A DNA stretch of 64,000 nt, from the NCBI GenBank assembly GCA_017499595.2, contig CM039006.1:2108001-2172000 (forward strand), in the 5' to 3' direction. The translations under genes and the position numbers were made by a program. This document shows, one piece after another, positions 1 to 37,700 of this stretch. The notes under the pieces are model-generated. The model worked only from the letters and a program-made list of their open reading frames with translations. It did not search any database and had not been told where the DNA came from. The DNA comes from Psilocybe cubensis (lineage: Eukaryota). Position 1 is the first letter of the stretch, and every line of letters starts with the position of its first letter.

Positions 1-1609
1 AAAGCATAACTTTTGCACAAATGCTATCTACGGTGCAAAATAAGCAGTGAGCTGTATAATGCATATTACAGGAAACACACTCTCAGACCCCAAAATACCC
101 ACCATTCTATCATACAGACACTCTTCCCCATCACCGCAGACTCAAACCGACCACCCAATCGCTCCGAGTCGCAGACTAGACCCAGAGCTATTGCAAACGG
201 GCATCTGCGCCTCCTCCCCCATTACGCACTTTCCAAGCCTTCCAAACCGCTCGCTCCCGGTCGCAACGTGTTTACGACACCCCTTACATACACGATCGAC
301 GCTTGTGGCGATTGAAAATGAGAGGAAGCAGCGGTGAACTTGGGTGAACTGTTTGTGTGCTGGCAGTCGTTACAAGCTCTAGCGACGTTTAACGCGTTTT
401 ACGTCGGTTTATGGGTTTCTGGGGATGCTGGTAATCACTGTGATATGAATAGGGGTTGTTGGGGTGAAGGATTTGTGGGCAAAAAAAGTTGTCGGATTGT
501 TTGCAAAGATGGAGTAGACGCGAGCTGAATCGCTCGCAGATCAATTTCAGCACCTTTGCACAACGGGGTACTATGCAGAATATGTTATACTTGACCAGGA
601 GAGCACCATAGAATGGTCAGCCAGACGGTCAAGCTCCCGGTGGAGTCCTGCAACACATCCGTTCCCCAATCCAATCCCCTCCTCCTTCCCCAAAACACCG
701 CTCGTCTCGCAAAAAAACCACCTGGATTGTTATCATCCCTGAACGTATCACTTATTCATAGCATCTCACGTACCTCGTCGCGTAATTTCGAAGCTGGAAA
801 CTGAAATTTTTTTTGTGATACTCCCGAGGCATTCCAGTCCGTCCATTCAATCGACACAAACACTAGAACGCAGAATACGTACGAATACAACACCTAGAAG
901 AGTACGGTAGTGTAGTACATGTCAGCTCCAAGCCCCGACAATAGAAAGATCAAGGAGTGCAACTCACCAAGTAGCAAATGTACATTTCACAAACGGCAGG
1001 ATGTAATGCATTGCGATGCAACAACTCCCCATCTGCATCTTCCGACCGAAATGCAGTTTGAAACGTCTGGAATTCGGTGCTTTGTATCTCGTTAGCTTAA
1101 TTAAGCAACGTAAGATCGAGGACTGTACCGAAATTGAGATGCAAATTTTTGAAGCTAGAGCTCGAGAGTTCACGTAGAGGCGGTTTGGCGAGTTTGCGGT
1201 GAATACTGGACTGCTTTGTGATGGGTGTAGCTGTTTTATGCTCGTCTCCTATTCTGTGGGTGTAGTTGTTATTTATTCTTCTAATTTTTGTGAGTGTAGT
1301 TGCACTGAGAGTATGTACTCGTTTACTTTTCTTTTCTGTGCTGCCTGGATATCAGAATTGATAACAAAAGTGATTATCACGAATCTCGTCTTTTCATGTC
1401 TATCGTGAACTGATCTTTAGCAAATAGAATGAAATTATATTGCATTAGCACACTACACGACGACAGGGGGTATACAGTGTACAGAAATACACCCAATCTC
1501 TCGCTTAGCGGAGGAGGCAGGTTGCAGATCCCAAATCGGACCCTGCAAAACGACCCGAAAACACAACCCCTGTGCGTATGTATGTACATACAGCGGCAAG
1601 GTGCGCGTG

Positions 1610-4590
1610 TATATAAGGAGTGTGGAATACCACTCACCTTTCCTCATCCCGCCTTGGCTTCTCCGCTCCGCTCTCCTCTCCTCTCCTCGAGTCTTGGGCA
1701 CCGCGCCCCCCACTCTTCTCTTTGGACTGGCACGACGACGAGGCGGCTCTGCTGTCTGTCGCAGAAATCAAGCTCACACTCACCTATTTGCAGGCCGCCC
1801 TGCTCGTGTCTAGCCTTCTCCGTGTGTGTCTTGCGAGCTGGAATATCCTTCTGCTGATTGACACCCATTCTCGCAGATGTTATCACCACATCTAACCGTA
1901 CTGCCTCCCCTGTAAGTGTCTTGTCATCGTGTTCTTTGTCGGGATGTTGCTAACAGTCTCTTGAAACTGCAGAATCGAGCGCGATGGAAAAGATGAGTGC
2001 TGGGTGACGTGTACCCCTGTAAGTGTCTGGATATTGTTTTTCTTACCAGAGACGTGTTGAGGCAACTGCTGGACGAGGTGCGAGAAACACCGTCGTAAGT
2101 ATTAGTCGCTCCGCGCTGTCTTGCTGGATGCCGTGTTCTGATGACTGTGGCATTACTGTACAGGAGCGACAGGATCGGCGCAGAACAGTCACAAATGACG
2201 CACCTAAAAGTGAGTACAATTTGCAGTCAGTCGTGTTACATGCCATCGAATTAACTCGCACCTACGCACCTTTTACAGCCACGCAGCGGACCCATTCTTC
2301 CTCATCTAGACCACGTTTGAACGTCCGCCCGCCCCCGTAAGTGTCTCGATCGTCATGTTTCTGGTAGGGCTTGTGCTGACAACTGGAAAGGCAGCTCGAA
2401 ATACGAGCTTGACGGTGCCGACGAGTGTTGGGTGACGTGGGAGAAGCGTCCGAGTAAGCTCCCTGCATGTCGAGGTCGCTCCGTGCCGTCTTGCTGACTG
2501 ACATTGCTGTAGATGAATGATGCGATTGACGGAGAGGAGCATTGAAAGGTGAGTACGTCCTGCAGTTGTGCTTCACATGTTTGATGCTGCTCCTTGCAGG
2601 CGTTGTCCGGTCTATCTCTGGATGTTGAGCTGCAATCGTGCTCCTCGTCGGAATCGCGCTGGAAGTCGATAAACGCGAGCGGGATGGTGTGGTGCAACAG
2701 GGAACTGTGGAGGCGGAGTGCGGGTGCGGTGGGTGCTGTATGCGACACGAGATGAGCTGTAGGTTGTTGTGACTGGAGGTATGTACCTCTATCTCTGTGG
2801 ATGTTGAACAATCGTGCTGACAGAGAGATTGAGGGTCAAGGGACTGCTGTCACTTTACCTCGTCCATGGTTGTCCATGGAAACCTCGCACCACGAGGGCC
2901 GGTAAGTTTGTTCTTGGTGAACTCATGCTGTCTGACGCTGAACTGGATGGTCGGTAGGCAACGTTCGAGATAGCGCAGCCTGTCAAGGTTGAGCACAACG
3001 CCAGCAGGGTTCTCGCGGCCTTGCGCTTGCCATGAATCCACTTCTGAATGTCGTCCCGCGATTGTGATCATCGTGACGCCGTGTTTCCAGCGCGGCCTCT
3101 TGCTGAATATCGTGACGAACGACTGGAACAGCGAAGAGGATGGTTGATGGGTGAGTACTTCTTGCGATCCAGCCGTCAAACTGATGTTCAATGCCTCTCG
3201 CAGACATTCTCCCGCCGCTTCGACCCACAAACCTCGTCAGAGTCGATGAACGTGAGTGCGGTGGAGCGAAAACAGGTTGTGGGGTACCGTGTGCGAGAGA
3301 CGGAGAGCTGGACACGGGTGCTGGAGATCAGTGTGAGTGGGGAAACTTTGAATAATGGTATGTATGTACCTTTATATTAGTGGTTGTTGTTGAACACCCA
3401 TGCTGACAGCGAGTTTGAGGCGCGAGACACTGCTGTCGATATGCGTCGTCCGTTGTTGTCCAGGGCGGTATCGTACATTAAGGATCTCGGTGAGTTTCTT
3501 GTCGGACTCGTGGTTGGTTGTTGATAAACCCAATGTCTGGTAGGCACTGTGCAATGAGGCACCCTGTAAATGTTTGGCACAGTGCTGCCAGGTGTTACGA
3601 GTATCGTATGAGGAGTGTCTACAGGTAGGGGATGAGCCGGGTGTCTTGAAAAGCTTGAATCACGGTACGTACCTTATTGCGGTTGGTGTCAAGTACCGGG
3701 CTGAAATTGAGGTTGAAGCTTGCTTTCAATAAGCATCGTCCATTGGCGAGGTCGTACGAGGATCTCTGTTGTGGGCAGAGATGTAGAGGTTGTGAACAAT
3801 GAATCGGCAGCCGTTTTGGTGAGTTTTATGCCTGTGTGTGTCGACGATGAGATTGAAGATGATTGCTAGCAAGGTGCAGAAGGTGAAGGCACGACGAGAA
3901 TCCGTGGAGATGGGCGAAGGCAGGTGGGGTGCTTTATAAGATAGGAGATGGGCTAGATGACCAGAAATCTCTGAATCATGGTACGTACCTTTATCGCGAT
4001 CGGTATGTAGTAACAGGCTGACAGAGAGGTTGAGGCACAAGGAATTGATGTCGATAAGCATTGTTCATTGGCGGCATCGAACGAGAAGGGCATTTGGGCC
4101 AGAGAGCCAGAGGTTGTGCATGAGGATTTGGCGTCTACGTCGGTGAGTTTACGCCTTTCCGTGTTGACGACGATGTTGAAACCGATGGGCAGCACGATGA
4201 GCAAGGTTGAGGTGCGAGGTAGGCCTGGGGCAGCAGATGCAGAATGTCTGTTGACAGGGAATGAGTTGGACGTCTGAAAAGTTTTGAATGACAGTACGTA
4301 CCTTTATCACAATGGATGTTGAATACCAGACTGACAGAAATATAAGGGTGTCCACGATGGCAGCGTATCTCAAAGAAAACAGGCAGGGTGTAGATGCTAT
4401 GAAAGGAGTAAATCGTGTTGTGGGGCGCCATGGATAGACCGGATTGTGCACGACGGCGAGCGTTGGAAGGGCAGAGGTCGAAGGTGTTGCAGTGCAGAAG
4501 AGAGAAGCAAGGGACGCTAGGAAAGAAGAGTCAAAGTGAGACAGTCGGGTTGGAAAAGAGGGAATTGCAGCGAAAAAGATGAGACGGACG
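1610..4590. ncRNA. Intron-dense repeat region, probably non-coding transcript(s) or a decayed microexon gene (copy 1)
   Basis: TATA-like TATATAA at ~1610. Canonical plus-strand introns 1912-1972, 2095-2163, 2210-2278, 2337-2394, 2454-2512 and 2549-2599 separate 35-60 nt exons. No long spliced ORF found. Confidence 0.45.
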
Positions 4591-4798
4591 CGTTAAATGG
4601 GTCATTGTAATGTAACCGGGTAACTGTAAGTCATTGGCGGAGTTCATAGATCATCTCCTGATTGATCAAGAGTAGCGCTAATCATGCAAACCCTTCATAT
4701 CTTGAATCCGCCCCAAATACTATCAAAGCTCTTTATTCCTACTTTAATGTCCAGTAAACACCAACACCCTACAGCTCAGAACTGGGCCTACATTTAAC

Positions 4799-5353
4799 AT
4801 GCACGTCGTTTGCGACGCACGCATGCCAACACATCTCCTCGCCGCCACACAGTCCGACCAGGATCCAGTGAAAACGTCGCCGCTAATGCTCCCCATTGAC
4901 CGCGTTCTTTTCGAGCGCGGATTTCGCATCGACCTTAATTTTCCACCAGCTACATCTATTACCCCCAAACCACGCAGTATAACCGTTGGAGATTCACAGG
5001 TCCTCTACGTGAACCTTCCGGTGATTCCTGTCAATGTGCCCCACCTCTCATCCCTTGCGCTCCTACTTCTCTATGCAATGGGTCTCGAAACCAATCTTAA
5101 CATCCTCGCTTGGAAGCTGCTTCCTGTAGAAGTCGTAGAGGAGTTTCCAAACGCGGCAGCCATGTCGACGATCTTATCAAGACGACCGCAGGCCGAACAG
5201 GAATCAATATACAGGCATAACCAGGGTTTGTGGAAAAACATTCTCGCGTTGGGATTAAATAATGCCCGGATAATCCAGGTTGTGCAGACGGCGTGGAATG
5301 TTACGGCAGACGCTCGTCGTGTCATGCTTCGCAATAACCTGAAGCAATACTAG
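4799..5353 (+). CDS. Clampless-1 (Clp1)-like protein, 184 aa
   Basis: Longest ORF of the unit. Motifs LPVIPVNVPH..S..LLLLY and GLWKNILALG......V..AWNV resemble the conserved Clp1-family C-terminal region. Confidence 0.7.
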   Translation: MHVVCDARMPTHLLAATQSDQDPVKTSPLMLPIDRVLFERGFRIDLNFPPATSITPKPRSITVGDSQVLYVNLPVIPVNVPHLSSLALLLLYAMGLETNLNILAWKLLPVEVVEEFPNAAAMSTILSRRPQAEQESIYRHNQGLWKNILALGLNNARIIQVVQTAWNVTADARRVMLRNNLKQY

Positions 5354-6653
5354 CCCAATTCCTGGCTTCTAATTTTTATGGATGCTTGCACAACCTACGA
5401 CTCCAACTTTACGATCACAAACTATATCTACAATGGATTCTCTCGGCCTCTTTTATCTTATCTTTTCCGGTCCATCTATTCATCCCGTACTAATATTTTT
5501 TCATGTGCGCCATCTATCGTTCATTTGTTTCTTATGGAACTTGTTATATCTATTCCTCATCACTATCTTACACTCATTCAGTTTACACTATTCAGCGTGT
5601 ACGAGAACCGGCGCAAGCTCTAATTTTCACATTCGCTGTCAAAACTGTGGTGGGCGATCAGCATCACTTAACCCTAAACCCTATGGCTGCCCAAGTGGGG
5701 AGATATTCCCCGTAGATATAATTTCCTTATTTTTGAGAAGTGCGTCAATGATAGAACAAAATTTGTGAGCGGACACATTTGTTTGGTGTGTGCAGATTTC
5801 TTTCTGAACCAATTTGATGAATCGGTAAACACAATTAGCTATTTCGAATATTTGAATTTGCAAGCGCGAGTGCATTATTTCTGCTCCAAATTATATTTAA
5901 TGTGTAAATTACATGTGCATAAGCACATTTTGTGCGCTGAACAAACGTTTCAATGCGAGGAAAACATACTATCATTGACCAGACGTTTGGTTGACCACTG
6001 ATTCGGTTTACCCACCTTCCCGTACTCCGTTTCTTCTGCAAATTGAAATATAAGCTTTAGTGTATGAGTTATACATGATCTTACTTTTTTTTGACCAGAA
6101 ACGAGGTAGAAATGAGCAAAACAAATGAGTGTTAGAAATTGATCGTTTTGCAATGCCGACAATGCCATCAAAAAGAAAGAAAGGACGGCATGTCGGCGCA
6201 TCGCGTCTCACGTGCAATATAGTCTCTAGACAGACCACGATACGTTTGCGTGTTTACTGAAACGCGTTCAGGATGCTCTGAGCACATCGTAACACTTTCT
6301 TTTCCTTTTCACAATTATATATGCTGACCCTACCTATGAAAATAGAATACAGGAAGCTATCAATGCTGTCCGTGATGGTCGATTTCCCACTCGTAATACC
6401 CATAGTTATACTTATACTAATAATTTCTGATATACTGATAACCAATAAATACCATTGTCTTTATTGCAACTGCAAGCGACGACAAAACATGAATGGACTT
6501 GAGGAGGAATCCCACGAGAATACGTCTTAGTTATAGGAAGCCGTCTTGTCGGCAGTGGTCGGAGTTGAAAATATTATGTACCGATGATCAGCCATCAAAA
6601 CGAATCCAAACCGAATGATTCTTTTTGTGAAGTGGGCAGCCGTGATTGGTTCC

Positions 6654-7165
6654 CTTTCGAGTCATTCAGCATGTACATCAAGACTGCGCTGATGTTGTTC
6701 ACTTCGCTTTGTAGCTGAGATCGAGCAGGTGGGTCATGATATTGGGTTCCCTTCAGCGCCAGATTAAATAAAATGCTCGTGGATGAAAGACCGACACTTT
6801 GTGTTCGATGGCGGGTGTTAGAAGGGATGTATCAATTCAATGTAGAAGCTTCAGGGAAACGGTATTGGTACTTCAAAATGCTTGAGAATTTGTTGAACGA
6901 GGCCTGCTATGATCTGAACATAGGGAGCTTGTGCAAACGCCTCTAAAACATCATCAGCAAGACTTGTCACAGTATGGATAGTAGCATTTCCCCATCCGAA
7001 TACAGTGCTTGGGAGTGATTCAGTGGTTTCAGCTCTCAGCGCTCCCGGACTGTCTACTGCAGCGTCAACTCTGTCTGGTTTTTCGTTTGACCTTGGCCGA
7101 GTCTGGCCATAAAGTATGATAGCACTATGTGGCGATGGCCTCGCGGTATTCGTCATTCTCCCCAT
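6654..7165 (-). pseudogene. Internally deleted NLR remnant (first exon plus an internal fragment)
   Basis: 6851-7165 (MGRMTNTARPSPHSAIILYG...VLEAFAQAPYVQIIAGLVQQILK) is homologous to NLR exon 1 at 59453-59800. 6654-6817 closely matches 57693-57852. Confidence 0.85.
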
Positions 7166-7732
7166 GATGCTTTGTACTTCAATCCGGTTTCCTTGTGGCT
7201 AATACGGCTGGTGGATTGGTATCGGTTGGCCACTGATATTGTATGCTGGCTAATTGAAGCGAGTTTGTTTATCTGTTTGGACACAGGAAGGTCTCCTTTT
7301 GCAACATTGAATGATAATGGTGATGCTTATTGAATATCTTTCAATATTCAAGTCTAAAGGATTGCGCGCCACGCATAGTACACCTGCCTCTGGAATCTTC
7401 GAATTTGTTATTTATGACTAGGCCTTGTCAATTATCTGACGAATATACGGTTTGGTAGACATCAAAAATCAAGAAAATTGGTATGTTTCTCCGGACTCGG
7501 ACCGTAGGCATAGGCCTTCGATAAACCGGATAATAGACGACACGTTTGGGCCTGAATGAGCTGTGATATTATCGAACAAAAGCCTTCGGGGCCGCCGCGG
7601 CATGCCCATGTCATTGTCGATGGCACTTGATGCCTATGAATCACGGTGAGTCACAAGCGCACGGTTATATATGGACGATATGAGCGGAGAGAAAAGAAGG
7701 CAATCTATCCATCGATACAACTGATATCTAGA

Positions 7733-8123
7733 ATGTTGACCCGGGACGATTATGTGTTTTTCTGGAAGACAAATGAGGAGCAGTGAGTCATTAAGTCACT
7801 TCCAACCAGGTCACGTAAAGAGTACATATAACCGTGCACAGTGGATGGGGCTCGCAGTGGTATCTTTCGCCCTTCAAAGCGGCCGTTGTACTTTCTGGAG
7901 ACGAGGGGGCAGAAGAAGAGACTGTGCTTTTCCCTACTGCTGAGCATTGAAAGCGCTGTTATTCAAAGACTATGCGGTGGCCCGAGAAATTCTAGAGATC
8001 ACAGGAGTCGGACAAGAGGAAATGCGATATGTCAAAGGCTTAGGTCGCAAAGTTCAGGGATTTGACGAAGAAACGTGCTTACTCAACCCCGAAATCATGG
8101 GGATCAAAGACGCTAATGTTTAT
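7733..8123 (+). pseudogene. Truncated NADAR (YbiA/DUF1768-like) pseudogene
   Basis: Near-identical to 40000-40341 up to GAAGAAAC (8074), then only short fragments of the remaining gene. Confidence 0.88.
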
Positions 8124-8329
8124 TCTAACCATCAATGGAGCGAATAACCATATTGAGACGACCCTGAGTGAAAGACATAGAAGTTTTTTTCTCTTTTTTG
8201 CTACGTACGGACATAGTTTCTCCCCGCCCGAAGGCCAGGGTGCTTATTTTCTCTATCTACACAAAAAAAATATCTTCACCTCTTAGTTTTGACTGGGGGC
8301 GCGTGAACGGAACTCTGTGACCAGAAAAC

Positions 8330-9560
8330 TTGCGGAAATCCAAAAGTTTGAATCTATATCTACAGAACCGTATTAGCAAAGACCACAAAACACATAATCT
8401 TGACTCTGACTCACGGTTTGTGTGAATTCAAAGCATTCAATTTCAACTGCAAAGGTAACATCAGCAAAGACCGAGATACCATGTACCACCAAACTCACCC
8501 TTGCAAGGCGATTCGGAAATATCAAAAATACTTGCCGGTCATAACTGGCGCAAAACATCAAATTTAGACCCGAGAGGTACCCGACATGGAAACACACACA
8601 ACAAACACACCTGCAGGGCGATTCGCCGGAACGCGAAATATCAAATTTTGACTTTGGGGGCGACTTGTAATGGGGCAGTTCGCGGGAATCCAAAATATCA
8701 AATTTCAACTCCTAGAGGTTGTATCAAACACAACTGTCCGCTACTAGAAAGGCAAATTATTGAAGGGAAAGTCAACATACAAACAAATGCCACGTACCAT
8801 CAAACAGACCCACAGAGCGATTCTCGGGAACGCAAAATATCAAATTTGGACTTTGGGGGCCACATACCACAAAAAATGTGTTGACTTGTAGCGGGGAGGT
8901 TTGCGGGAATCCAAAATATCGAATGTAGGTCTGAGGGGGAGAGGTTTACAACTGAGTTTGACACCCTGGAGTCATATTCGCATACACCTAACATGCTCGC
9001 AGGGCGGTCCGCGGGAACGCGAAATATCAAATTTCGACTTCGAGGGGTGCCACATAGCACCAAACACTAGGGCATGGTTCGCGGGAATCCAGAATATCGA
9101 ATTTACGTCCGAGGGAGGCCAATCTGACTTGCACCGTGTTTGCTTTGACTCCTGTTGTCATGTTAGTAAAGAATAAAAGAGAGATGCAAGTGCCACGTAC
9201 GAAAATATGTAGTCTTCAGCACAGTTCGCGGGAACACAGAATCTCAAATTTCGGTCGGGGGCCGGTCAATCTGACTTGCAAGATGTTTGCTTTGACTCCT
9301 GCTGTAATGTTAGTAAAGACTGAGAAAGAGAAGCAAGTGCCACGTACCAAAATATGTAGCCTTCAGCGCGGTTTGCGGGAACACAGAATATCAAATTTCG
9401 AAAGGTGACGGAGTTTGATGAACAGGGTGGTTCGCGGGAAGTCAAAATATACAATTTTGATGCCTGGGACCGTAACTGGCATTCAGGCCACGGCAGCGTA
9501 TCACTATGGTGGCGGGAAGGCGAAATATCGAGTCGGCGGACGCCCAAAAATCAAATTTTG
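8330..9560 (+). repeat. Degenerate iterated motif, consensus about GGTTCGCGGGAA(T/C)(C/G)CAAAATATCAAATTT, about 12-14 copies
   Basis: Clear copies near 8620, 8678, 8820, 8898, 9006, 9076, 9224, 9370, 9429 and 9509. Weaker copies near 8330, 8510, 8548 and 9542. Confidence 0.9.
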
Positions 9561-12500
9561 AGCGCGACACCAACTCGAATCGCAGACTGGCATAAGGACG
9601 GGATGGACAGCTGTCAAAATTCCATTTCGTGCCCTCTTATATACCTTCAGCAAAGTTCCGAGAACCCTGATCCAATTCTTTTAGCTCGCTCCTACGTTTG
9701 CCAAATTTTCTGCCTGATCCCCGTGTACGTACACCCAGCAACACATCCTCGTTACCTCACTTTCCACTCTACATGGCCCAGGAATGTCAGCCTATCATTT
9801 GAGTCAAACACATTGCTAATGGTATTCATGATTTTCACAACTCACAGGGGCTCAAAATTCCAAAAATAAGTAACACAACTCCTGATGAACTTTTCGATGG
9901 ATTCTAACGACTCACAGGGGCTTGAAATTCCAAAAATAAGCAACACAGCAACTAGCGTGTATCGGCAATTTAAACTACATACGAGATCGCAGCCAGCTCA
10001 TCGGTCCACCCAAACCAATCGACTGGATTTCAGGGTCCCAGATATCTTTTTTGGCAAAATCGATTCGTCTGGAAATGAGCTCATCGTGAACCTTTTCCCA
10101 TAGTCCTCTTATGTGCGAATGACATCACATACCGTGCCAAGTCCAATAGACGCGCGGATTTCAAATAAGCGCCCAGTCTTTTCCGGGACGTTCATCAAGG
10201 TTCCTACGCTGTCCTTCCACTTTCAAGTCATTTCAATTGCTAAACGTTGTGCTTTTCATCATTCTAAGAGGTTTCCATGGTCAAATAGCTGCAGAAACGC
10301 ACCGAATTCATGTATCGAGCATTGCCACGTAGGTCACAAAATCCAGCATTTCGAGATCAAACACAACGAACAACAGGTCAAAATGAGTGTTCCCATATAT
10401 AAACAGGACCACTAAGTACTTCTCGGATCTTTTCTAACGAGTAAACGCGTGGGATATGAAAATGTAACTATATTTTCCCCTGACTACATTGGTTTACTCC
10501 TGTTCTAGGTTTACTTTACCCTCGCTAGTGGTTCACAATGACATATTTACCTTCTTTGCATCCTTGCATGTACCTTTAAACATAATACGGACTCGTCAAC
10601 TTGTCTGAACGCTGGAGACAAAGCGAAATCAACACGTCACCCTATAACGTTCTCCGTCTCGATTTCGACATTTGTTGAATTAGAGTCGTTTCGAGGGCAC
10701 TACGTAACGTAAGATATAATTAGTTTTGATAAAAATATTGGGCTTAGAAGACGGAAACGTCGGCGGATGCGAAGAGACTGTAATTCCGGAAAACACAGTT
10801 ACGAACGTTCCTTGAATTTCGCTTTATACAGGTCATTGTACACTTTGAAGATCCATGTAGGGTATTCTAGTCTACATATGTTAAAAGACTCAATGCTCTG
10901 TGAGGCACGATTTTATGTTCAAAATGTTCCATAAAGCTCGATTGAGTCGTTCCGGAGTGGAATAACAACACACGGAAAACACTCTGTTTCAAATGTACAG
11001 ACACTGAGAGATTTAAAACTACCCTAATTCACTTGAAGCATCAAACTTCAAAGCATAACTTTTGCACAAATGCTATCTACGGTGCAAAATAAGCAGTGAG
11101 CTGTATAATGCATATTACAGGAAACACACTCTCAGACCCCAAAATACCCACCATTCTATCATACAGACACTCTTCCCCATCACCGCAGACTCAAACCGAC
11201 CACCCAATCGCTCCGAGTCGCAGACTAGACCCAGAGCTATTGCAAACGGGCATCTGCGCCTCCTCCCCCATTACGCACTTTCCAAGCCTTCCAAACCGCT
11301 CGCTCCCGGTCGCAACGTGTTTACGACACCCCTTACATACACGATCGACGCTTGTGGCGATTGAAAATGAGAGGAAGCAGCGGTGAACTTGGGTGAACTG
11401 TTTGTGTGCTGGCAGTCGTTACAAGCTCTAGCGACGTTTAACGCGTTTTACGTCGGTTTATGGGTTTCTGGGGATGCTGGTAATCACTGTGATATGAATA
11501 GGGGTTGTTGGGGTGAAGGATTTGTGGGCAAAAAAAGTTGTCGGATTGTTTGCAAAGATGGAGTAGACGCGAGCTGAATCGCTCGCAGATCAATTTCAGC
11601 ACCTTTGCACAACGGGGTACTATGCAGAATATGTTATACTTGACCAGGAGAGCACCATAGAATGGTCAGCCAGACGGTCAAGCTCCCGGTGGAGTCCTGC
11701 AACACATCCGTTCCCCAATCCAATCCCCTCCTCCTTCCCCAAAACACCGCTCGTCTCGCAAAAAAACCACCTGGATTGTTATCATCCCTGAACGTATCAC
11801 TTATTCATAGCATCTCACGTACCTCGTCGCGTAATTTCGAAGCTGGAAACTGAAATTTTTTTTGTGATACTCCCGAGGCATTCCAGTCCGTCCATTCAAT
11901 CGACACAAACACTAGAACGCAGAATACGTACGAATACAACACCTAGAAGAGTACGGTAGTGTAGTACATGTCAGCTCCAAGCCCCGACAATAGAAAGATC
12001 AAGGAGTGCAACTCACCAAGTAGCAAATGTACATTTCACAAACGGCAGGATGTAATGCATTGCGATGCAACAACTCCCCATCTGCATCTTCCGACCGAAA
12101 TGCAGTTTGAAACGTCTGGAATTCGGTGCTTTGTATCTCGTTAGCTTAATTAAGCAACGTAAGATCGAGGACTGTACCGAAATTGAGATGCAAATTTTTG
12201 AAGCTAGAGCTCGAGAGTTCACGTAGAGGCGGTTTGGCGAGTTTGCGGTGAATACTGGACTGCTTTGTGATGGGTGTAGCTGTTTTATGCTCGTCTCCTA
12301 TTCTGTGGGTGTAGTTGTTATTTATTCTTCTAATTTTTGTGAGTGTAGTTGCACTGAGAGTATGTACTCGTTTACTTTTCTTTTCTGTGCTGCCTGGATA
12401 TCAGAATTGATAACAAAAGTGATTATCACGAATCTCGTCTTTTCATGTCTATCGTGAACTGATCTTTAGCAAATAGAATGAAATTATATTGCATTAGCAC

Positions 12501-12658
12501 ACTACACGACGACAGGGGGTATACAGTGTACAGAAATACACCCAATCTCTCGCTTAGCGGAGGAGGCAGGTTGCAGATCCCAAATCGGACCCTGCAAAAC
12601 GACCCGAAAACACAACCCCTGTGCGTATGTATGTACATACAGCGGCAAGGTGCGCGTG

Positions 12659-15639: not shown

Positions 15640-15847
15640 CGTTAAATGGGTCATTGTAATGTAACCGGGTAACTGTAAGTCATTGGCGGAGTTCATAGAT
15701 CATCTCCTGATTGATCAAGAGTAGCGCTAATCATGCAAACCCTTCATATCTTGAATCCGCCCCAAATACTATCAAAGCTCTTTATTCCTACTTTAATGTC
15801 CAGTAAACACCAACACCCTACAGCTCAGAACTGGGCCTACATTTAAC

Positions 15848-23600: not shown

Positions 23601-23707
23601 GCTTAGCGGAGGAGGCAGGTTGCAGATCCCAAATCGGACCCTGCAAAACGACCCGAAAACACAACCCCTGTGCGTATGTATGTACATACAGCGGCAAGGT
23701 GCGCGTG

Positions 23708-26688: not shown

Positions 26689-26896
26689 CGTTAAATGGGT
26701 CATTGTAATGTAACCGGGTAACTGTAAGTCATTGGCGGAGTTCATAGATCATCTCCTGATTGATCAAGAGTAGCGCTAATCATGCAAACCCTTCATATCT
26801 TGAATCCGCCCCAAATACTATCAAAGCTCTTTATTCCTACTTTAATGTCCAGTAAACACCAACACCCTACAGCTCAGAACTGGGCCTACATTTAAC

Positions 26897-27451
26897 ATGC
26901 ACGTCGTTTGCGACGCACGCATGCCAACACATCTCCTCGCCGCCACACAGTCCGACCAGGATCCAGTGAAAACGTCGCCGCTAATGCTCCCCATTGACCG
27001 CGTTCTTTTCGAGCGCGGATTTCGCATCGACCTTAATTTTCCACCAGCTACATCTATTACCCCCAAACCACGCAGTATAACCGTTGGAGATTCACAGGTC
27101 CTCTACGTGAACCTTCCGGTGATTCCTGTCAATGTGCCCCACCTCTCATCCCTTGCGCTCCTACTTCTCTATGCAATGGGTCTCGAAACCAATCTTAACA
27201 TCCTCGCTTGGAAGCTGCTTCCTGTAGAAGTCGTAGAGGAGTTTCCAAACGCGGCAGCCATGTCGACGATCTTATCAAGACGACCGCAGGCCGAACAGGA
27301 ATCAATATACAGGCATAACCAGGGTTTGTGGAAAAACATTCTCGCGTTGGGATTAAATAATGCCCGGATAATCCAGGTTGTGCAGACGGCGTGGAATGTT
27401 ACGGCAGACGCTCGTCGTGTCATGCTTCGCAATAACCTGAAGCAATACTAG
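26897..27451 (+). CDS. Clp1-like protein (copy 3)
   Basis: Identical translation to 4799-5353. Confidence 0.7.
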   Translation: MHVVCDARMPTHLLAATQSDQDPVKTSPLMLPIDRVLFERGFRIDLNFPPATSITPKPRSITVGDSQVLYVNLPVIPVNVPHLSSLALLLLYAMGLETNLNILAWKLLPVEVVEEFPNAAAMSTILSRRPQAEQESIYRHNQGLWKNILALGLNNARIIQVVQTAWNVTADARRVMLRNNLKQY

Positions 27452-28751
27452 CCCAATTCCTGGCTTCTAATTTTTATGGATGCTTGCACAACCTACGACT
27501 CCAACTTTACGATCACAAACTATATCTACAATGGATTCTCTCGGCCTCTTTTATCTTATCTTTTCCGGTCCATCTATTCATCCCGTACTAATATTTTTTC
27601 ATGTGCGCCATCTATCGTTCATTTGTTTCTTATGGAACTTGTTATATCTATTCCTCATCACTATCTTACACTCATTCAGTTTACACTATTCAGCGTGTAC
27701 GAGAACCGGCGCAAGCTCTAATTTTCACATTCGCTGTCAAAACTGTGGTGGGCGATCAGCATCACTTAACCCTAAACCCTATGGCTGCCCAAGTGGGGAG
27801 ATATTCCCCGTAGATATAATTTCCTTATTTTTGAGAAGTGCGTCAATGATAGAACAAAATTTGTGAGCGGACACATTTGTTTGGTGTGTGCAGATTTCTT
27901 TCTGAACCAATTTGATGAATCGGTAAACACAATTAGCTATTTCGAATATTTGAATTTGCAAGCGCGAGTGCATTATTTCTGCTCCAAATTATATTTAATG
28001 TGTAAATTACATGTGCATAAGCACATTTTGTGCGCTGAACAAACGTTTCAATGCGAGGAAAACATACTATCATTGACCAGACGTTTGGTTGACCACTGAT
28101 TCGGTTTACCCACCTTCCCGTACTCCGTTTCTTCTGCAAATTGAAATATAAGCTTTAGTGTATGAGTTATACATGATCTTACTTTTTTTTGACCAGAAAC
28201 GAGGTAGAAATGAGCAAAACAAATGAGTGTTAGAAATTGATCGTTTTGCAATGCCGACAATGCCATCAAAAAGAAAGAAAGGACGGCATGTCGGCGCATC
28301 GCGTCTCACGTGCAATATAGTCTCTAGACAGACCACGATACGTTTGCGTGTTTACTGAAACGCGTTCAGGATGCTCTGAGCACATCGTAACACTTTCTTT
28401 TCCTTTTCACAATTATATATGCTGACCCTACCTATGAAAATAGAATACAGGAAGCTATCAATGCTGTCCGTGATGGTCGATTTCCCACTCGTAATACCCA
28501 TAGTTATACTTATACTAATAATTTCTGATATACTGATAACCAATAAATACCATTGTCTTTATTGCAACTGCAAGCGACGACAAAACATGAATGGACTTGA
28601 GGAGGAATCCCACGAGAATACGTCTTAGTTATAGGAAGCCGTCTTGTCGGCAGTGGTCGGAGTTGAAAATATTATGTACCGATGATCAGCCATCAAAACG
28701 AATCCAAACCGAATGATTCTTTTTGTGAAGTGGGCAGCCGTGATTGGTTCC

Positions 28752-29263
28752 CTTTCGAGTCATTCAGCATGTACATCAAGACTGCGCTGATGTTGTTCAC
28801 TTCGCTTTGTAGCTGAGATCGAGCAGGTGGGTCATGATATTGGGTTCCCTTCAGCGCCAGATTAAATAAAATGCTCGTGGATGAAAGACCGACACTTTGT
28901 GTTCGATGGCGGGTGTTAGAAGGGATGTATCAATTCAATGTAGAAGCTTCAGGGAAACGGTATTGGTACTTCAAAATGCTTGAGAATTTGTTGAACGAGG
29001 CCTGCTATGATCTGAACATAGGGAGCTTGTGCAAACGCCTCTAAAACATCATCAGCAAGACTTGTCACAGTATGGATAGTAGCATTTCCCCATCCGAATA
29101 CAGTGCTTGGGAGTGATTCAGTGGTTTCAGCTCTCAGCGCTCCCGGACTGTCTACTGCAGCGTCAACTCTGTCTGGTTTTTCGTTTGACCTTGGCCGAGT
29201 CTGGCCATAAAGTATGATAGCACTATGTGGCGATGGCCTCGCGGTATTCGTCATTCTCCCCAT
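28752..29263 (-). pseudogene. NLR remnant (copy 3)
   Basis: Array copy of 6654-7165. Confidence 0.85.
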
Positions 29264-29830
29264 GATGCTTTGTACTTCAATCCGGTTTCCTTGTGGCTAA
29301 TACGGCTGGTGGATTGGTATCGGTTGGCCACTGATATTGTATGCTGGCTAATTGAAGCGAGTTTGTTTATCTGTTTGGACACAGGAAGGTCTCCTTTTGC
29401 AACATTGAATGATAATGGTGATGCTTATTGAATATCTTTCAATATTCAAGTCTAAAGGATTGCGCGCCACGCATAGTACACCTGCCTCTGGAATCTTCGA
29501 ATTTGTTATTTATGACTAGGCCTTGTCAATTATCTGACGAATATACGGTTTGGTAGACATCAAAAATCAAGAAAATTGGTATGTTTCTCCGGACTCGGAC
29601 CGTAGGCATAGGCCTTCGATAAACCGGATAATAGACGACACGTTTGGGCCTGAATGAGCTGTGATATTATCGAACAAAAGCCTTCGGGGCCGCCGCGGCA
29701 TGCCCATGTCATTGTCGATGGCACTTGATGCCTATGAATCACGGTGAGTCACAAGCGCACGGTTATATATGGACGATATGAGCGGAGAGAAAAGAAGGCA
29801 ATCTATCCATCGATACAACTGATATCTAGA

Positions 29831-30221
29831 ATGTTGACCCGGGACGATTATGTGTTTTTCTGGAAGACAAATGAGGAGCAGTGAGTCATTAAGTCACTTC
29901 CAACCAGGTCACGTAAAGAGTACATATAACCGTGCACAGTGGATGGGGCTCGCAGTGGTATCTTTCGCCCTTCAAAGCGGCCGTTGTACTTTCTGGAGAC
30001 GAGGGGGCAGAAGAAGAGACTGTGCTTTTCCCTACTGCTGAGCATTGAAAGCGCTGTTATTCAAAGACTATGCGGTGGCCCGAGAAATTCTAGAGATCAC
30101 AGGAGTCGGACAAGAGGAAATGCGATATGTCAAAGGCTTAGGTCGCAAAGTTCAGGGATTTGACGAAGAAACGTGCTTACTCAACCCCGAAATCATGGGG
30201 ATCAAAGACGCTAATGTTTAT
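29831..30221 (+). pseudogene. Truncated NADAR pseudogene (copy 3)
   Basis: Array copy of 7733-8123. Confidence 0.88.
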
Positions 30222-30427
30222 TCTAACCATCAATGGAGCGAATAACCATATTGAGACGACCCTGAGTGAAAGACATAGAAGTTTTTTTCTCTTTTTTGCT
30301 ACGTACGGACATAGTTTCTCCCCGCCCGAAGGCCAGGGTGCTTATTTTCTCTATCTACACAAAAAAAATATCTTCACCTCTTAGTTTTGACTGGGGGCGC
30401 GTGAACGGAACTCTGTGACCAGAAAAC

Positions 30428-31658
30428 TTGCGGAAATCCAAAAGTTTGAATCTATATCTACAGAACCGTATTAGCAAAGACCACAAAACACATAATCTTG
30501 ACTCTGACTCACGGTTTGTGTGAATTCAAAGCATTCAATTTCAACTGCAAAGGTAACATCAGCAAAGACCGAGATACCATGTACCACCAAACTCACCCTT
30601 GCAAGGCGATTCGGAAATATCAAAAATACTTGCCGGTCATAACTGGCGCAAAACATCAAATTTAGACCCGAGAGGTACCCGACATGGAAACACACACAAC
30701 AAACACACCTGCAGGGCGATTCGCCGGAACGCGAAATATCAAATTTTGACTTTGGGGGCGACTTGTAATGGGGCAGTTCGCGGGAATCCAAAATATCAAA
30801 TTTCAACTCCTAGAGGTTGTATCAAACACAACTGTCCGCTACTAGAAAGGCAAATTATTGAAGGGAAAGTCAACATACAAACAAATGCCACGTACCATCA
30901 AACAGACCCACAGAGCGATTCTCGGGAACGCAAAATATCAAATTTGGACTTTGGGGGCCACATACCACAAAAAATGTGTTGACTTGTAGCGGGGAGGTTT
31001 GCGGGAATCCAAAATATCGAATGTAGGTCTGAGGGGGAGAGGTTTACAACTGAGTTTGACACCCTGGAGTCATATTCGCATACACCTAACATGCTCGCAG
31101 GGCGGTCCGCGGGAACGCGAAATATCAAATTTCGACTTCGAGGGGTGCCACATAGCACCAAACACTAGGGCATGGTTCGCGGGAATCCAGAATATCGAAT
31201 TTACGTCCGAGGGAGGCCAATCTGACTTGCACCGTGTTTGCTTTGACTCCTGTTGTCATGTTAGTAAAGAATAAAAGAGAGATGCAAGTGCCACGTACGA
31301 AAATATGTAGTCTTCAGCACAGTTCGCGGGAACACAGAATCTCAAATTTCGGTCGGGGGCCGGTCAATCTGACTTGCAAGATGTTTGCTTTGACTCCTGC
31401 TGTAATGTTAGTAAAGACTGAGAAAGAGAAGCAAGTGCCACGTACCAAAATATGTAGCCTTCAGCGCGGTTTGCGGGAACACAGAATATCAAATTTCGAA
31501 AGGTGACGGAGTTTGATGAACAGGGTGGTTCGCGGGAAGTCAAAATATACAATTTTGATGCCTGGGACCGTAACTGGCATTCAGGCCACGGCAGCGTATC
31601 ACTATGGTGGCGGGAAGGCGAAATATCGAGTCGGCGGACGCCCAAAAATCAAATTTTG
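30428..31658 (+). repeat. Iterated motif block (copy 3)
   Basis: Array copy of 8330-9560. Confidence 0.9.
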
Positions 31659-34600
31659 AGCGCGACACCAACTCGAATCGCAGACTGGCATAAGGACGGG
31701 ATGGACAGCTGTCAAAATTCCATTTCGTGCCCTCTTATATACCTTCAGCAAAGTTCCGAGAACCCTGATCCAATTCTTTTAGCTCGCTCCTACGTTTGCC
31801 AAATTTTCTGCCTGATCCCCGTGTACGTACACCCAGCAACACATCCTCGTTACCTCACTTTCCACTCTACATGGCCCAGGAATGTCAGCCTATCATTTGA
31901 GTCAAACACATTGCTAATGGTATTCATGATTTTCACAACTCACAGGGGCTCAAAATTCCAAAAATAAGTAACACAACTCCTGATGAACTTTTCGATGGAT
32001 TCTAACGACTCACAGGGGCTTGAAATTCCAAAAATAAGCAACACAGCAACTAGCGTGTATCGGCAATTTAAACTACATACGAGATCGCAGCCAGCTCATC
32101 GGTCCACCCAAACCAATCGACTGGATTTCAGGGTCCCAGATATCTTTTTTGGCAAAATCGATTCGTCTGGAAATGAGCTCATCGTGAACCTTTTCCCATA
32201 GTCCTCTTATGTGCGAATGACATCACATACCGTGCCAAGTCCAATAGACGCGCGGATTTCAAATAAGCGCCCAGTCTTTTCCGGGACGTTCATCAAGGTT
32301 CCTACGCTGTCCTTCCACTTTCAAGTCATTTCAATTGCTAAACGTTGTGCTTTTCATCATTCTAAGAGGTTTCCATGGTCAAATAGCTGCAGAAACGCAC
32401 CGAATTCATGTATCGAGCATTGCCACGTAGGTCACAAAATCCAGCATTTCGAGATCAAACACAACGAACAACAGGTCAAAATGAGTGTTCCCATATATAA
32501 ACAGGACCACTAAGTACTTCTCGGATCTTTTCTAACGAGTAAACGCGTGGGATATGAAAATGTAACTATATTTTCCCCTGACTACATTGGTTTACTCCTG
32601 TTCTAGGTTTACTTTACCCTCGCTAGTGGTTCACAATGACATATTTACCTTCTTTGCATCCTTGCATGTACCTTTAAACATAATACGGACTCGTCAACTT
32701 GTCTGAACGCTGGAGACAAAGCGAAATCAACACGTCACCCTATAACGTTCTCCGTCTCGATTTCGACATTTGTTGAATTAGAGTCGTTTCGAGGGCACTA
32801 CGTAACGTAAGATATAATTAGTTTTGATAAAAATATTGGGCTTAGAAGACGGAAACGTCGGCGGATGCGAAGAGACTGTAATTCCGGAAAACACAGTTAC
32901 GAACGTTCCTTGAATTTCGCTTTATACAGGTCATTGTACACTTTGAAGATCCATGTAGGGTATTCTAGTCTACATATGTTAAAAGACTCAATGCTCTGTG
33001 AGGCACGATTTTATGTTCAAAATGTTCCATAAAGCTCGATTGAGTCGTTCCGGAGTGGAATAACAACACACGGAAAACACTCTGTTTCAAATGTACAGAC
33101 ACTGAGAGATTTAAAACTACCCTAATTCACTTGAAGCATCAAACTTCAAAGCATAACTTTTGCACAAATGCTATCTACGGTGCAAAATAAGCAGTGAGCT
33201 GTATAATGCATATTACAGGAAACACACTCTCAGACCCCAAAATACCCACCATTCTATCATACAGACACTCTTCCCCATCACCGCAGACTCAAACCGACCA
33301 CCCAATCGCTCCGAGTCGCAGACTAGACCCAGAGCTATTGCAAACGGGCATCTGCGCCTCCTCCCCCATTACGCACTTTCCAAGCCTTCCAAACCGCTCG
33401 CTCCCGGTCGCAACGTGTTTACGACACCCCTTACATACACGATCGACGCTTGTGGCGATTGAAAATGAGAGGAAGCAGCGGTGAACTTGGGTGAACTGTT
33501 TGTGTGCTGGCAGTCGTTACAAGCTCTAGCGACGTTTAACGCGTTTTACGTCGGTTTATGGGTTTCTGGGGATGCTGGTAATCACTGTGATATGAATAGG
33601 GGTTGTTGGGGTGAAGGATTTGTGGGCAAAAAAAGTTGTCGGATTGTTTGCAAAGATGGAGTAGACGCGAGCTGAATCGCTCGCAGATCAATTTCAGCAC
33701 CTTTGCACAACGGGGTACTATGCAGAATATGTTATACTTGACCAGGAGAGCACCATAGAATGGTCAGCCAGACGGTCAAGCTCCCGGTGGAGTCCTGCAA
33801 CACATCCGTTCCCCAATCCAATCCCCTCCTCCTTCCCCAAAACACCGCTCGTCTCGCAAAAAAACCACCTGGATTGTTATCATCCCTGAACGTATCACTT
33901 ATTCATAGCATCTCACGTACCTCGTCGCGTAATTTCGAAGCTGGAAACTGAAATTTTTTTTGTGATACTCCCGAGGCATTCCAGTCCGTCCATTCAATCG
34001 ACACAAACACTAGAACGCAGAATACGTACGAATACAACACCTAGAAGAGTACGGTAGTGTAGTACATGTCAGCTCCAAGCCCCGACAATAGAAAGATCAA
34101 GGAGTGCAACTCACCAAGTAGCAAATGTACATTTCACAAACGGCAGGATGTAATGCATTGCGATGCAACAACTCCCCATCTGCATCTTCCGACCGAAATG
34201 CAGTTTGAAACGTCTGGAATTCGGTGCTTTGTATCTCGTTAGCTTAATTAAGCAACGTAAGATCGAGGACTGTACCGAAATTGAGATGCAAATTTTTGAA
34301 GCTAGAGCTCGAGAGTTCACGTAGAGGCGGTTTGGCGAGTTTGCGGTGAATACTGGACTGCTTTGTGATGGGTGTAGCTGTTTTATGCTCGTCTCCTATT
34401 CTGTGGGTGTAGTTGTTATTTATTCTTCTAATTTTTGTGAGTGTAGTTGCACTGAGAGTATGTACTCGTTTACTTTTCTTTTCTGTGCTGCCTGGATATC
34501 AGAATTGATAACAAAAGTGATTATCACGAATCTCGTCTTTTCATGTCTATCGTGAACTGATCTTTAGCAAATAGAATGAAATTATATTGCATTAGCACAC

Positions 34601-34756
34601 TACACGACGACAGGGGGTATACAGTGTACAGAAATACACCCAATCTCTCGCTTAGCGGAGGAGGCAGGTTGCAGATCCCAAATCGGACCCTGCAAAACGA
34701 CCCGAAAACACAACCCCTGTGCGTATGTATGTACATACAGCGGCAAGGTGCGCGTG

Positions 34757-37700
34757 TATATAAGGAGTGTGGAATACCACTCACCTTTCCTCATCCCGCC
34801 TTGGCTTCTCCGCTCCGCTCTCCTCTCCTCTCCTCGAGTCTTGGGCACCGCGCCCCCCACTCTTCTCTTTGGACTGGCACGACGACGAGGCGGCTCTGCT
34901 GTCTGTCGCAGAAATCAAGCTCACACTCACCTATTTGCAGGCCGCCCTGCTCGTGTCTAGCCTTCTCCGTGTGTGTCTTGCGAGCTGGAATATCCTTCTG
35001 CTGATTGACACCCATTCTCGCAGATGTTATCACCACATCTAACCGTACTGCCTCCCCTGTAAGTGTCTTGTCATCGTGTTCTTTGTCGGGATGTTGCTAA
35101 CAGTCTCTTGAAACTGCAGAATCGAGCGCGATGGAAAAGATGAGTGCTGGGTGACGTGTACCCCTGTAAGTGTCTGGATATTGTTTTTCTTACCAGAGAC
35201 GTGTTGAATGTGTTTTGAAGCTGCAGAAGCGAGCGGGATGGCGAAGGCAACTGCTGGATGAGGTGCAAGAAACACCGTCGTAAGTGTCAGTCGCTCCGCG
35301 CTGTCTTGCTGGATGCCGTGTTCTGATGACTGTGGTCTTATTGTACAGGAGCGACAGGATCGGCGCAGAACAGTCACGAACGACGCACCTAAAAGTGAGT
35401 ACAATTTGCAGTCAGTCGTGTTACATGCCATCGAATTAACTCGTACCTACGCACCTTTTGCAGACACGTAACGGACCCATTCTCCCTCATCGAGACCACG
35501 TTTGAACGTCCGCCCGCCCCCGTAAGTGTCTCGATCGTCATGTTTCTGGTAGGGCTAGTGCTGACAACTGGAAAGGCAGCTCGAAATACGAGCTTGACGG
35601 TGCCGACGAGTGTTGGGTGACGTGGGAGAAACGTCCGAGTAAGCTCCCTGCATGTCGAGGTCGCTCCGTGCCGTCTTGCTGACTGACATTGCTGTAGATG
35701 AATGATGCGATTGACGGAGAGGAGCATTGAAAGGTGAGTACGTCCTGCAGTTGTGCTTCACATGTTTGATGCTGCTCCTTGCAGGCGTTGTCCGGTCTAT
35801 CTCTGGATGTTGAGCTGCAATCGTGCTCCTCGTCGGAATCGCTCTGGAAGTCGATAAACGCGAGCGGGATGGTGTGGTGCAACAGGGAACTGTGGAGGCA
35901 GAGTGCGGGTGCGGTGGGTGCTGTATGCGACACGAGATGAGCTGTAGGTTGTTGTGACTGGAGGTATGTACCGTTATCTCTGTGGATGTTGAATACCCGT
36001 GCTGACAGTGAAAATGAGGGTCAAGGGACTGCTGTCACTTTACCTCGTCCATGGTTGTCCATGGAAACCTCGCACCACGAGGGCCGGTAAGTTTGTTCTT
36101 GTTAAGCTCGTGCTGTCTGACGCTGAACTGGATGGTCGGTAGGCAACGTTCGAGATAGCGCAGCCTGTCGAGGTTGAGCCGAACGCCAGTATGGTTCTCG
36201 CGGACTTGCGCTCGCCATGAATCCACTTCTGAATGTAGTCCCGTGATTGTGATCCTGGTGAGGCCGTGATTCCAAAGCGGCTTCTTGCTGGATATCGCGA
36301 CGATCGACTGGAACGGCGAAGAAGAGGGTTAGCGGGTGAGTTCTTCTTTGCAATCTCACTTGGGCTGTTGATAAACCCGATGACTAGTTGACAATGCGCC
36401 ACGATGGACCCGTAAACATTCGGCACAGTGCTGCCAGGTGTTGTGGTATCATATGAGAGGTGTCTACACGGGTGAGCCGGGTGTCTTGAAAAGTTTGAAT
36501 CACGGTACGTACCTCATTGCGGTTGGTGTTAAGTACCGGGCTGAAATTGAGGTTTAAGCACGAAGACTTGCTGTCGATACGCGTCGTTCATGCAGCATCG
36601 TACGAAGAAGATCTTGGTTGTGGGCAGAGAGCTAGAGGCTGTGCATGATGAAGGGCGCCTGCGTCGGTGAGTTTATGCCTTTCCGTGTAGACGAAGACGC
36701 TGAAAATGATCCCTGGCAGGTTGAGGAGTGACGAGGATCCGTGGAGATGGGTGTGAAGGCAGGTGTTGTGGGGTGCTGTATAAGATGAGTTGGATGTCAA
36801 GAGATCTTTGAATCATGGTACGTACCTTTATCGCGGTTGGTATCGATAACCAGGCTGACAGCGAGATTGAGGGGCGAGGGACTGCTGTCGATACGCCTTA
36901 ACCGCGGCCTTGTGGTTGTTGAGGTTGAGGTGATAATGAGAGTGGAAAGAGGGGATGCCCGGATGTTGTGGGGTGTTGTAACTGTCCTGGTGTCTATGTG
37001 AGTGTTCTCTGTGGATATCAAGTGCCAACTAACTGTGCAGTTGAAAGATTGATGGCGGCGGGCCTTTACCCCCCTAATACCACGACGGCGGACTGAACTG
37101 CGGCATCGTACAAGGAGAATCTCGGTTGTGGGCAGAGAGTTAGATACTGTGCACGATGAAGGGCGCCTGCCTCGGTGAGTTTTACGCCTGTGTGTATCAA
37201 CGACGACGTTGAAGATGATTGTTAGCACAGTGCGGAAGGTTGAGGCGTGACGGAGGTGGGTAAAGGCAGATATTGTGGGGTACTGTATAAGACAGGAGAT
37301 GAGTTGGATGTCAAGAGATCTTTGAATCATGGTACGTACCTTTATCGCGGTTGGTATGGAGTAACAGGCTGACAGACAGGTTGAGGCACTAGGAATTGAT
37401 GTCAATAAGCATTGACCATTGGCAACATCGAACGAGAAGGGTTTTTGGGCCAGAGAGCCAGAGGTTGTGCACGAGGATTCGGCGTCTGGGTCGGTGAGTT
37501 TATGCCTTTTCGTGTTGACGAGAATGTTGAAACCGATGGGCAGCACGATGAGCAAGGTTGAGGTGCGAGGTGGGCCTGGGGCAGCAGATGCAGAATGTCT
37601 GTTGACAGGGAATGAGTTGGACGTCTGAAAAGTTTTGAATGACAGTACGTACCTTTATCACAATGGATGTTGAGTACCAGACTGACAGAAATATAAGGGT

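Follow-up and report, generated by a model that had tools for sequence, protein, structure and literature searches.

What has multiplied a gene-bearing segment of the Psilocybe cubensis genome into identical, head-to-tail units of 11,049 bp? The window that we analysed is a stretch of 64,000 nt, positions 2,108,001-2,172,000 of contig C9 (CM039006.1, assembly GCA_017499595.2), in a genome of 46.6 Mb and 21 contigs; coordinates below are window positions unless a contig is named, and negative values lie to the left of the window. The repeated unit consists of a non-coding cassette of 7.6 kb, here called E, and a segment of local host DNA, here called M, and a block of about 170 bp at one end of E recurs at other loci of the genome. 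Our tentative reading, which we prefer while regarding it as short of probable, is that the array is the footprint of a non-autonomous, circle-forming cassette that captured host DNA, recombined into a matching site and then amplified; E has the appearance of a mobile element of a kind not yet described, one by which genes are duplicated rather than broken.

Extent, layout and copy number of the array

When the sequence was compared with itself at a lag of 11,049, 24,158 of 24,158 positions over window 1-24,158 matched, so that 1-35,207 (plus strand) is perfectly periodic. The identical tract extends 3,741 bases leftward past the window to a total of 38,948 bp, or 3.525 periods, and the identical head-to-tail copies described in an earlier note on this DNA are borne out. 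The note had also let a diverged version begin at 35,207. A diverged copy does adjoin there and runs to 40,344, with 97.0% identity over its first 3.2 kb (the identical part included) and then blocks of 94.6% and 98.0%; however, 35,207 is not a unit border, being a 38-base indel at which the identical tract stops and the diverged copy has 38 extra bases. The true unit borders are at 8077|8078, where a NADAR gene is cut, and at 4591|4592. On the left side, a second diverged partial copy was found at -5379 to -2972, with 97.2% identity to 37,943-40,344.

The locus reads, in order, unique DNA, a first host segment (M0), four times E followed by M, and unique DNA again, a layout written M[E M]n, in which the outermost parts are host DNA. 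On the plus strand, the second of the four cassettes occupies 8078-15640 and the others lie at 1-4591 (part), 19127-26689 and 30176-37942, the last of them with a diverged right arm at 35208-37942. The amplified version of M was placed by sequence comparison at 4592-8077, 15641-19126 and 26690-30175 (plus strand), and the last M (37943-40594, plus strand) continues into a complete NADAR frame, open at 40211-40594. M is local host DNA, comprising a Clampless-1-family gene, NLR fragments and the 5' half of the NADAR gene; its first and last copies share 97.2% identity over 2.4 kb, and its three versions are a mosaic of one another.

Perfect identity of the units is also what assembly expansion of a two-copy repeat could produce, and an array on contig C6 is in fact partly doubled across a gap of 100 N. 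The contig depths of run X1 argue otherwise, with 9.6-10.0 in the flank, 9.75 in the one-copy part, 25.9 and 33.1 in the three-copy parts, 38.9 in the four-copy part (over E) and 47-48 in the five-copy parts, or steps of approximately 1:3:4:5; X1 is possibly the source sample, so that it is not independent, and contig depth is no direct copy number, so that the argument lies in the fit of all steps. Because all of these steps fit the assembled copy numbers, the array is taken to be real, and assembly expansion, the outcome that the note itself had named as fatal to its claim, is extremely improbable. Raw reads from another study (X13 and X14, with many fixed differences from the assembly) covered the spacer of E at 3.0x and 4.6x and a wider stretch at 2.6x and 4.3x, which likewise speaks against an assembly expansion. 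The copy number of the amplified unit varies between strains or runs.

The unit was said to hold neither rRNA nor transposase. The former was confirmed, as no Rfam family reached its gathering score in window 22,000-64,000. The latter holds for proteins, as Pfam found no mobile-element domain in six frames read through stops (one spurious match, E-value 0.076), but the unit does contain non-coding remnants of repeats of the terminal inverted repeat (TIR) type at 5682-6615. An origin from rDNA or its spacer was rejected: the rDNA lies on C13 with a period of 8,975, and five cassettes had no match to the rDNA unit at an E-value of 0.5. The suggestion of a Y'-like subtelomeric array was abandoned, since the array is at 2.10-2.14 Mb of a 3.13-Mb contig, approximately 0.99 Mb from the nearer end, and has no helicase gene.

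A conserved block at 23 loci

Other arrays of the genome contain parts of E, with one occurrence in each unit. The block lies at 8078-8260 on the plus strand (and again at +11049 and +22098), with an invariant 15-mer at 8222-8236 and a right edge, CTATCTAC, at 8253-8260. The 15-mer, from the left end of E, had 69 genome matches at one mismatch or fewer (61 exact and 8 with the same change), against a single match of the reversed 15-mer and about 1.9 expected. The 69 sites form 23 loci, with 57 sites in 11 arrays and 12 alone, and most spacings are 7.4-11.3 kb; the count of 10 on C6 is inflated by the doubled stretch at the scaffold gap. The block of approximately 170 bp was found in the flanks of all 23 loci, showing the right edge CT(A/G)TCTAC in 18, a long stem in 17 and a left edge motif in 12 of them. 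In all 13 loci in which both stem and edge were matched, the stem ends 11 nt before the edge, and it is kept despite sequence change in C10, C8b and C9b; formal covariation is weak, with 90.8% of cells paired and 2 pairs changed on both sides. The window's block groups with those of C7a, C7b, C6a, C1a and C10 (support 0.997). An Rfam search of 16 block-bearing loci gave a single match, at an E-value of 3.3, readings of the block as a hammerhead, a twister or a snoRNA were dropped for want of Rfam support, and consensus folds of five degenerate block copies were weak. Pattern scans of JGI metagenomes returned no relatives of the family. No description of it was found in the literature on P. cubensis repeats, basidiomycete Helitrons, large target duplications, DINE-1 amplification or fungal antisense arrays, a survey whose scope excluded subscription journals and supplements, so that absence from print is not established.

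At all seven of the 23 loci that were tested (six by sequence, C13b by flank search only), E stands between direct repeats of local DNA. These measure 2.4 kb at 97% identity in C9, 1.9 kb at 94% in C7a, 2.3 kb at 96% in C7b, 2.1 kb at 83% in C6a and, around single cassettes, 1.6 kb at 94% in C1a and at least 2.8 kb at 96-98% in C13c. Among the duplicated DNA are rho1, which at one array has an intact first copy and, judged by eye, frameshifted later copies, a DUF4140/4139 gene, the 3' part of a chitin synthase gene and segments without a Pfam match. The C13c cassette has little sequence likeness to the others and yet the same plan: block, left repeats with a GCGGGAA motif, a TATA box for each strand, spacer and an arm of repeated exon-intron units; Pfam found no transposase, reverse transcriptase (RT) or recombinase in it. 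Both ends of E are ragged: the filler to the left of the block ranges from 0 to approximately 130 bases, and the cassettes share no right end. The right joints of C9, C1a, C7b and C7a show microhomologies of a few bases. The idea that the right joint always falls at a host promoter was discarded, being true of C9, C6a and C7b and false of C13c, where the joint is inside the chitin synthase gene.

This family decides against the account given by the earlier note as a whole explanation, namely that unequal crossover recently amplified an ordinary old duplication, perhaps under selection for gene dose. Its last step is probably right: the outer copies are 97% alike, the three versions form a mosaic, the recent tract is perfect and copy number differs from run to run, all of which agree with an older duplication of which one variant was recently amplified. 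Nevertheless, a single duplication leaves unaccounted for both the common block and the architecture at the other loci, this being one of at least 23 that share the block, and because of the block family we consider the account as a whole quite unlikely. An amplicon selected for dosage is unlikely as well because the amplified gene copies are damaged: the extra clp1-like copies no longer read their first 39 codons in frame, and those of the NADAR gene are cut.

The layout M E M would also result from hybrid-end or sister-chromatid insertion by a cut-and-paste DNA transposon, which, as in P and Ac/Ds elements, can leave one element between direct duplications. No TIRs were found in any of five cassettes (best local scores 13-17), nor direct terminal repeats, and together with the ragged ends this renders such a transposon very improbable here. 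An element of the long terminal repeat (LTR) or retroelement type fits no better, since the flanking repeats differ from locus to locus and continue into host genes and no RT match was obtained; the introns kept on both strands of E argue for a DNA rather than an RNA intermediate.

Several block sites have further peculiarities. On C6:220,820-317,865 (L087-L096), the rho1 array is present in two versions, one on each side of the 100-N gap at 257,331, with 17.2 kb at 99.99% identity on both sides, unique flank included; the doubling reflects either two haplotypes (of approximately 4 and 6 cassettes) or an assembly overlap. Four block sites on C8:2,650,682-2,812,794 (L125-L128) fall into two pairs of nearly identical members, which in one pair are inverted relative to each other at a distance of 162 kb. 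At C7:225,036-229,671 (L069), a single unit of the 7,837-bp array has an extra 4.6 kb, for a spacing of 12,476, and near block site C1b there is a long inverted repeat (C1:4,181,542-4,190,000, L103) with arms of at least 3.5 kb at 98%.

RNA from the cassette and the genes beside it

The right arm of E (1610-4675, plus strand) begins with a TATA box at 1610 followed by a spliced non-coding leader, with 14 RNA-supported GT-AG introns between 2095 and 4346 and predicted introns at 1912-1972 and 4626-4675. The support comes from X9, which was taken as RNA because of its GT-AG joints, no run being recorded as RNA and its contigs being unstranded. A 2,800-nt X9 contig has 14 plus-strand GT-AG joints among the joints listed (15 of 33) and runs on into the clp1-like copy, with a depth of 209, the neighbouring gene having 98.8. 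Stops occur in every one of the three frames of the rebuilt RNA, and 45 ATGs lie upstream of the remaining clp1-like frame; a protein-coding right arm was rejected on account of these stops and, by inspection, the lack of any open frame approaching 100 codons. The RNA that E drives to the right, into the clp1-like copy, is spliced and non-coding.

A second, leftward RNA from E is likely. The left arm (8360-9643, minus strand) is made up, in part by prediction, of repeated exon-intron units with a GCGGGAA-type motif, behind a minus-strand TATA box at 9643 and a start near 9581; a reading of these repeats as iterons was rejected, since they are exon-intron units and the gapped pattern had no matches. 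Pattern search gave minus introns at 9347-9302, 9200-9152, 8498-8447 and 8414-8360, and two more, at 8796-8740 and 8610-8545, were picked by eye. A second X9 contig crosses the joint between the NADAR gene and E, and its listed piece ends at 30,457, the acceptor of the predicted minus intron at 8360-8414. Its bin depths fall short by 173 and 152 bases, and the six minus introns sum to both values, a fit that is partly made, as two of the six were chosen after the deficit was known. RNA cover ends near 9,581, approximately 60 bases past a minus-strand TATA box that is kept in two sister cassettes. Since plus-spliced RNA of the NADAR gene and left-arm RNA with apparent minus-strand splicing are joined in a single contig, the two RNAs appear to overlap near the NADAR-E joint.

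Between the arms lies the spacer (9650-12600, no strand assigned), whose middle has little or no RNA cover and which is collinear at 60-80% with two C7 sister cassettes. A 733-bp piece of this region (11898-12625, equivalent to 849-1576) is 93% identical to a subtelomeric repeat of C8. The subtelomeric array itself (C8:3,238,718-3,335,923, L034-L044) has a 12.9-kb segment in four copies at 99.7-100% identity among telomere-adjacent repeats of approximately 4.5 kb; the segment contains the 733 bp, which belong to E's right promoter region, together with 2.1 kb of 68% identity to the spacer of C13c, and lacks the block.

Such transcription could mean that E, whatever it derives from, is a domesticated silencing cassette, kept for its two promoters: one would yield sense RNA of the right-hand copy of the duplicated gene and the other would send antisense RNA into the left-hand copy, and these would form double-stranded RNA and small RNAs tuning the clp1-like gene, rho1, chitin synthase and other genes. 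The spliced plus-strand RNA entering the clp1-like copy at depth 209 behind 45 upstream ATGs, the overlap of plus-spliced NADAR RNA with apparently minus-spliced left-arm RNA and the frameshifts of the extra gene copies would suit this logic, which resembles that of Su(Ste) with hoppel (PMC7874207). However, the duplicated segments are mixed, some having no Pfam match and others beginning within a gene, which is what chance targets would look like, and we judge the silencing cassette to be unlikely.

Of the host genes in M, the Clampless-1-family gene is intact in M0, the leftmost copy, outside the window, where it encodes 223 aa; in the later copies, the first 39 codons are no longer in frame. 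In the amplified version (4684-5353, plus strand), the ancestral start at 4684 is out of frame and a 184-codon frame is left at 4799-5353. The 223-aa product is matched by a language model at 0.96-0.98 to clusters with CLP1_C, and CLP1_C (PF28353) is precomputed on many of its homologues, which places it in the family; the local Pfam copy gave no CLP1_C match to its region. It is 48% identical to a Coprinopsis protein that UniRef labels Clp1. The gene of this locus is one of at least two paralogues in the genome, and the assignment concerns family membership, not orthology with the clp1 of the mating pathway. It is intronless (L011:4730-5401), and a 76%-identical paralogue on C13 (L046:4938-5678) has an intron after codon 15; from the sequences, the difference may reflect either a retrocopy or intron loss. 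A weak search found no longer or fused forms of the clp1-like protein.

The NADAR-domain gene is represented by its 5' part at 7600-8077 (plus strand, start approximate), cut at the E joint. A segment of 1.16 kb, at 5682-6852 (no strand assigned), is present only in the amplified version and consists of a TIR-repeat arm, a piece of another dispersed repeat and a fragment of an NLR gene at 6649-6817. The arm, at 5682-5967 (compare L049:4079-5235), belongs to an element of approximately 1.15 kb with inverted ends of approximately 290 bp, which occurs as inverted pairs at many places in the genome. An NLR-type gene (NB-ARC/NACHT and TPR) lies on the minus strand at 55762-58899 and 59417-59884, and pieces of a paralogue of it are found inside M at 6649-6817 (93%) and at 6851-7165 (minus strand), the latter resembling the 5' exon at 59417-59884. 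Further right, 52935-54900 is an A-rich low-complexity stretch with internal duplications of 250-380 bp at 87-95%.

A proposed circle and its likeness to known systems

In the circle-forming reading that we prefer, the block would be a rolling-circle 3' end of Helitron type, with its hairpin 11 nt before a sharp CTAC edge. The Helitron Helraiser is described as having a palindrome 11 nt upstream of its 3' end (PMC4778049), and Helitrons as forming circles with joined ends (PMC5876387). E would move as a DNA circle with its ends joined at the CTAC edge, the enzyme being supplied from elsewhere. The circle might gain 1.5-3 kb of host DNA beside the block through repair or template switching, as the ragged joints and short microhomologies suggest, and would then enter a chromosome by a single crossover in matching host DNA, with no transposase pasting it, to give M E M. 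Two copies of M would permit unequal exchange or repeated circle entry, and thereby arrays; the last round of amplification would be recent enough that 38.9 kb has no mismatch. Insertion into gene-dense DNA would be nearly harmless because the host genes at the site keep one whole copy, while the extra copies of M would decay and be transcribed from the promoters of E as long spliced non-coding RNAs.

The hairpin position agrees with that of Helitron1 elements, whose hairpins precede the 3' end by 10-12 nt; here the distance is 11 nt in all 13 loci with stem and edge matched. A number of observations weigh against the proposal. The edge is CTAC in 18 of 18 loci and not the CTRR of Helitron1; the bases after it vary (TC in 3 of 18, T in 8 of 18), TC being the Helitron1 5' end. 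The long stem is lost in three relatives and in the window's copy, in which the stem's own right arm is gone. A Pfam scan of two cassettes found no Rep-helicase; of the 22 Helitron Rep matches in the genome, none lies, by eye, within 20 kb of a 15-mer site; and the 3' end of the one autonomous Helitron family that was read differs from the block. Among the loci examined, neither an E without duplication nor an empty site was seen, and no free circle was observed. Furthermore, 13 of 18 loci have a splice donor of the minus strand 8-10 nt past the edge, and a CTAAC resembling a branch point falls within the stem; these features are equally compatible with an RNA element.

Other class features also separate E from Helitrons. 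Instead of inserting between A and T without target duplication, as Helitron1 does, E has kilobase direct repeats at 7 of 7 loci; for the asymmetric TIR of Helitron2/FoHeli, an inverted hairpin core was found in one of five units, 490 bases from the joint, and there is no end-to-end inverted match. On the features tested, E falls outside the Helitron1, Helitron2, TIR and LTR classes. As to the genome's own Helitrons, a set of five copies (L105-L109, L139, L140 set) has open frames of 1,958 codons and a second family has frames of 2,808 codons; two 1,958-codon copies that were compared are identical over 5.7 kb and do not end in CTRR, their 8-bp hairpin stopping two bases short of the end.

The same splice signals lend themselves to an explanation that needs no dedicated enzyme, in which host repair, by template switching at a broken or stalled fork, would copy E into the joints of tandem duplications. 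E would then be a self-spreading core duplicon, and the block an RNA element, the structured last intron and exon of the leftward RNA. The ragged ends of E with 0 to approximately 130 bases of filler and no common right end, the minus donor at 13 of 18 loci and the failure to find a partner enzyme all agree with this, as does a UUCG loop on the minus strand, which all 8 variants of the 15-mer turn into UUUG. However, this G>A change is also the commonest CpG mutation, and the block has no Rfam family. Host repair also leaves unexplained why one family was chosen at 23 sites and why unit size is, for most spacings, confined to 7.4-11 kb, and we rate it as somewhat unlikely.

On the boldest reading, the cassette would represent a new class of eukaryotic mobile element, enzyme-free and always inserting with a gene-sized target duplication, such that no gene is destroyed and each site becomes an expandable array; its divergent promoters would make the extra copies a source of sense and antisense RNA directed against the captured gene (clp1-family here, rho1 and chitin synthase elsewhere). 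This is possible but doubtful. If the family spreads as proposed, a single cis-element would provide a route by which genes are duplicated in tandem at many loci. One cause would then account for at least 11 tandem arrays of this genome, and copy number next to developmental and cell-wall genes would differ from strain to strain. Annotation that recognises repeats by their transposases and terminal repeats would overlook such a cassette.

E resembles Helitrons (Helraiser, HELPO1/2 of Pleurotus ostreatus and FoHeli of Fusarium) in its hairpin 11 nt before a sharp edge and its lack of TIRs, in a CC-GAA-GG core in the block like that of the FoHeli1/2 end hairpins, and in captured host DNA, promoters driving spliced chimeric RNA and head-to-tail arrays (PMC4778049, PMC5876387, PMC4289320, PMC5148889). 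Helitrons differ in making no target duplication, in inserting at AT/TT, in their CTRR or asymmetric TIR ends and in carrying captured DNA away, whereas the DNA captured here is always local and outermost, as direct repeats of 1.6 to more than 2.8 kb. The Su(Ste) repeats of Drosophila with hoppel similarly consist of tandem, frameshifted host-gene copies with an inserted element supplying antisense transcription (PMC7874207). In contrast to the dispersed family described here, which stands at unrelated genes beside the parent copy and for which silencing is putative, Su(Ste) is a single locus with a known TIR transposon and proven piRNAs. Primate core duplicons are promoter-bearing cores that seed duplications, and integrase-independent Tf1 insertion and circles that re-enter by homologous recombination are precedents for circle entry; none of these is known as a family in which every new site is accompanied by its own duplication on the kilobase scale. 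IS26 translocatable units combine an element and a host gene in tandem and grow by unequal exchange. In these units, as in the Kochia EPSPS array, the element forms the outside or the boundary of the unit, and a known transposase is either encoded by it or its source. The Kochia array also has element and host gene in tandem with growth by unequal exchange (PMC6808082). In contrast to both, host DNA is outermost here at all seven loci tested.

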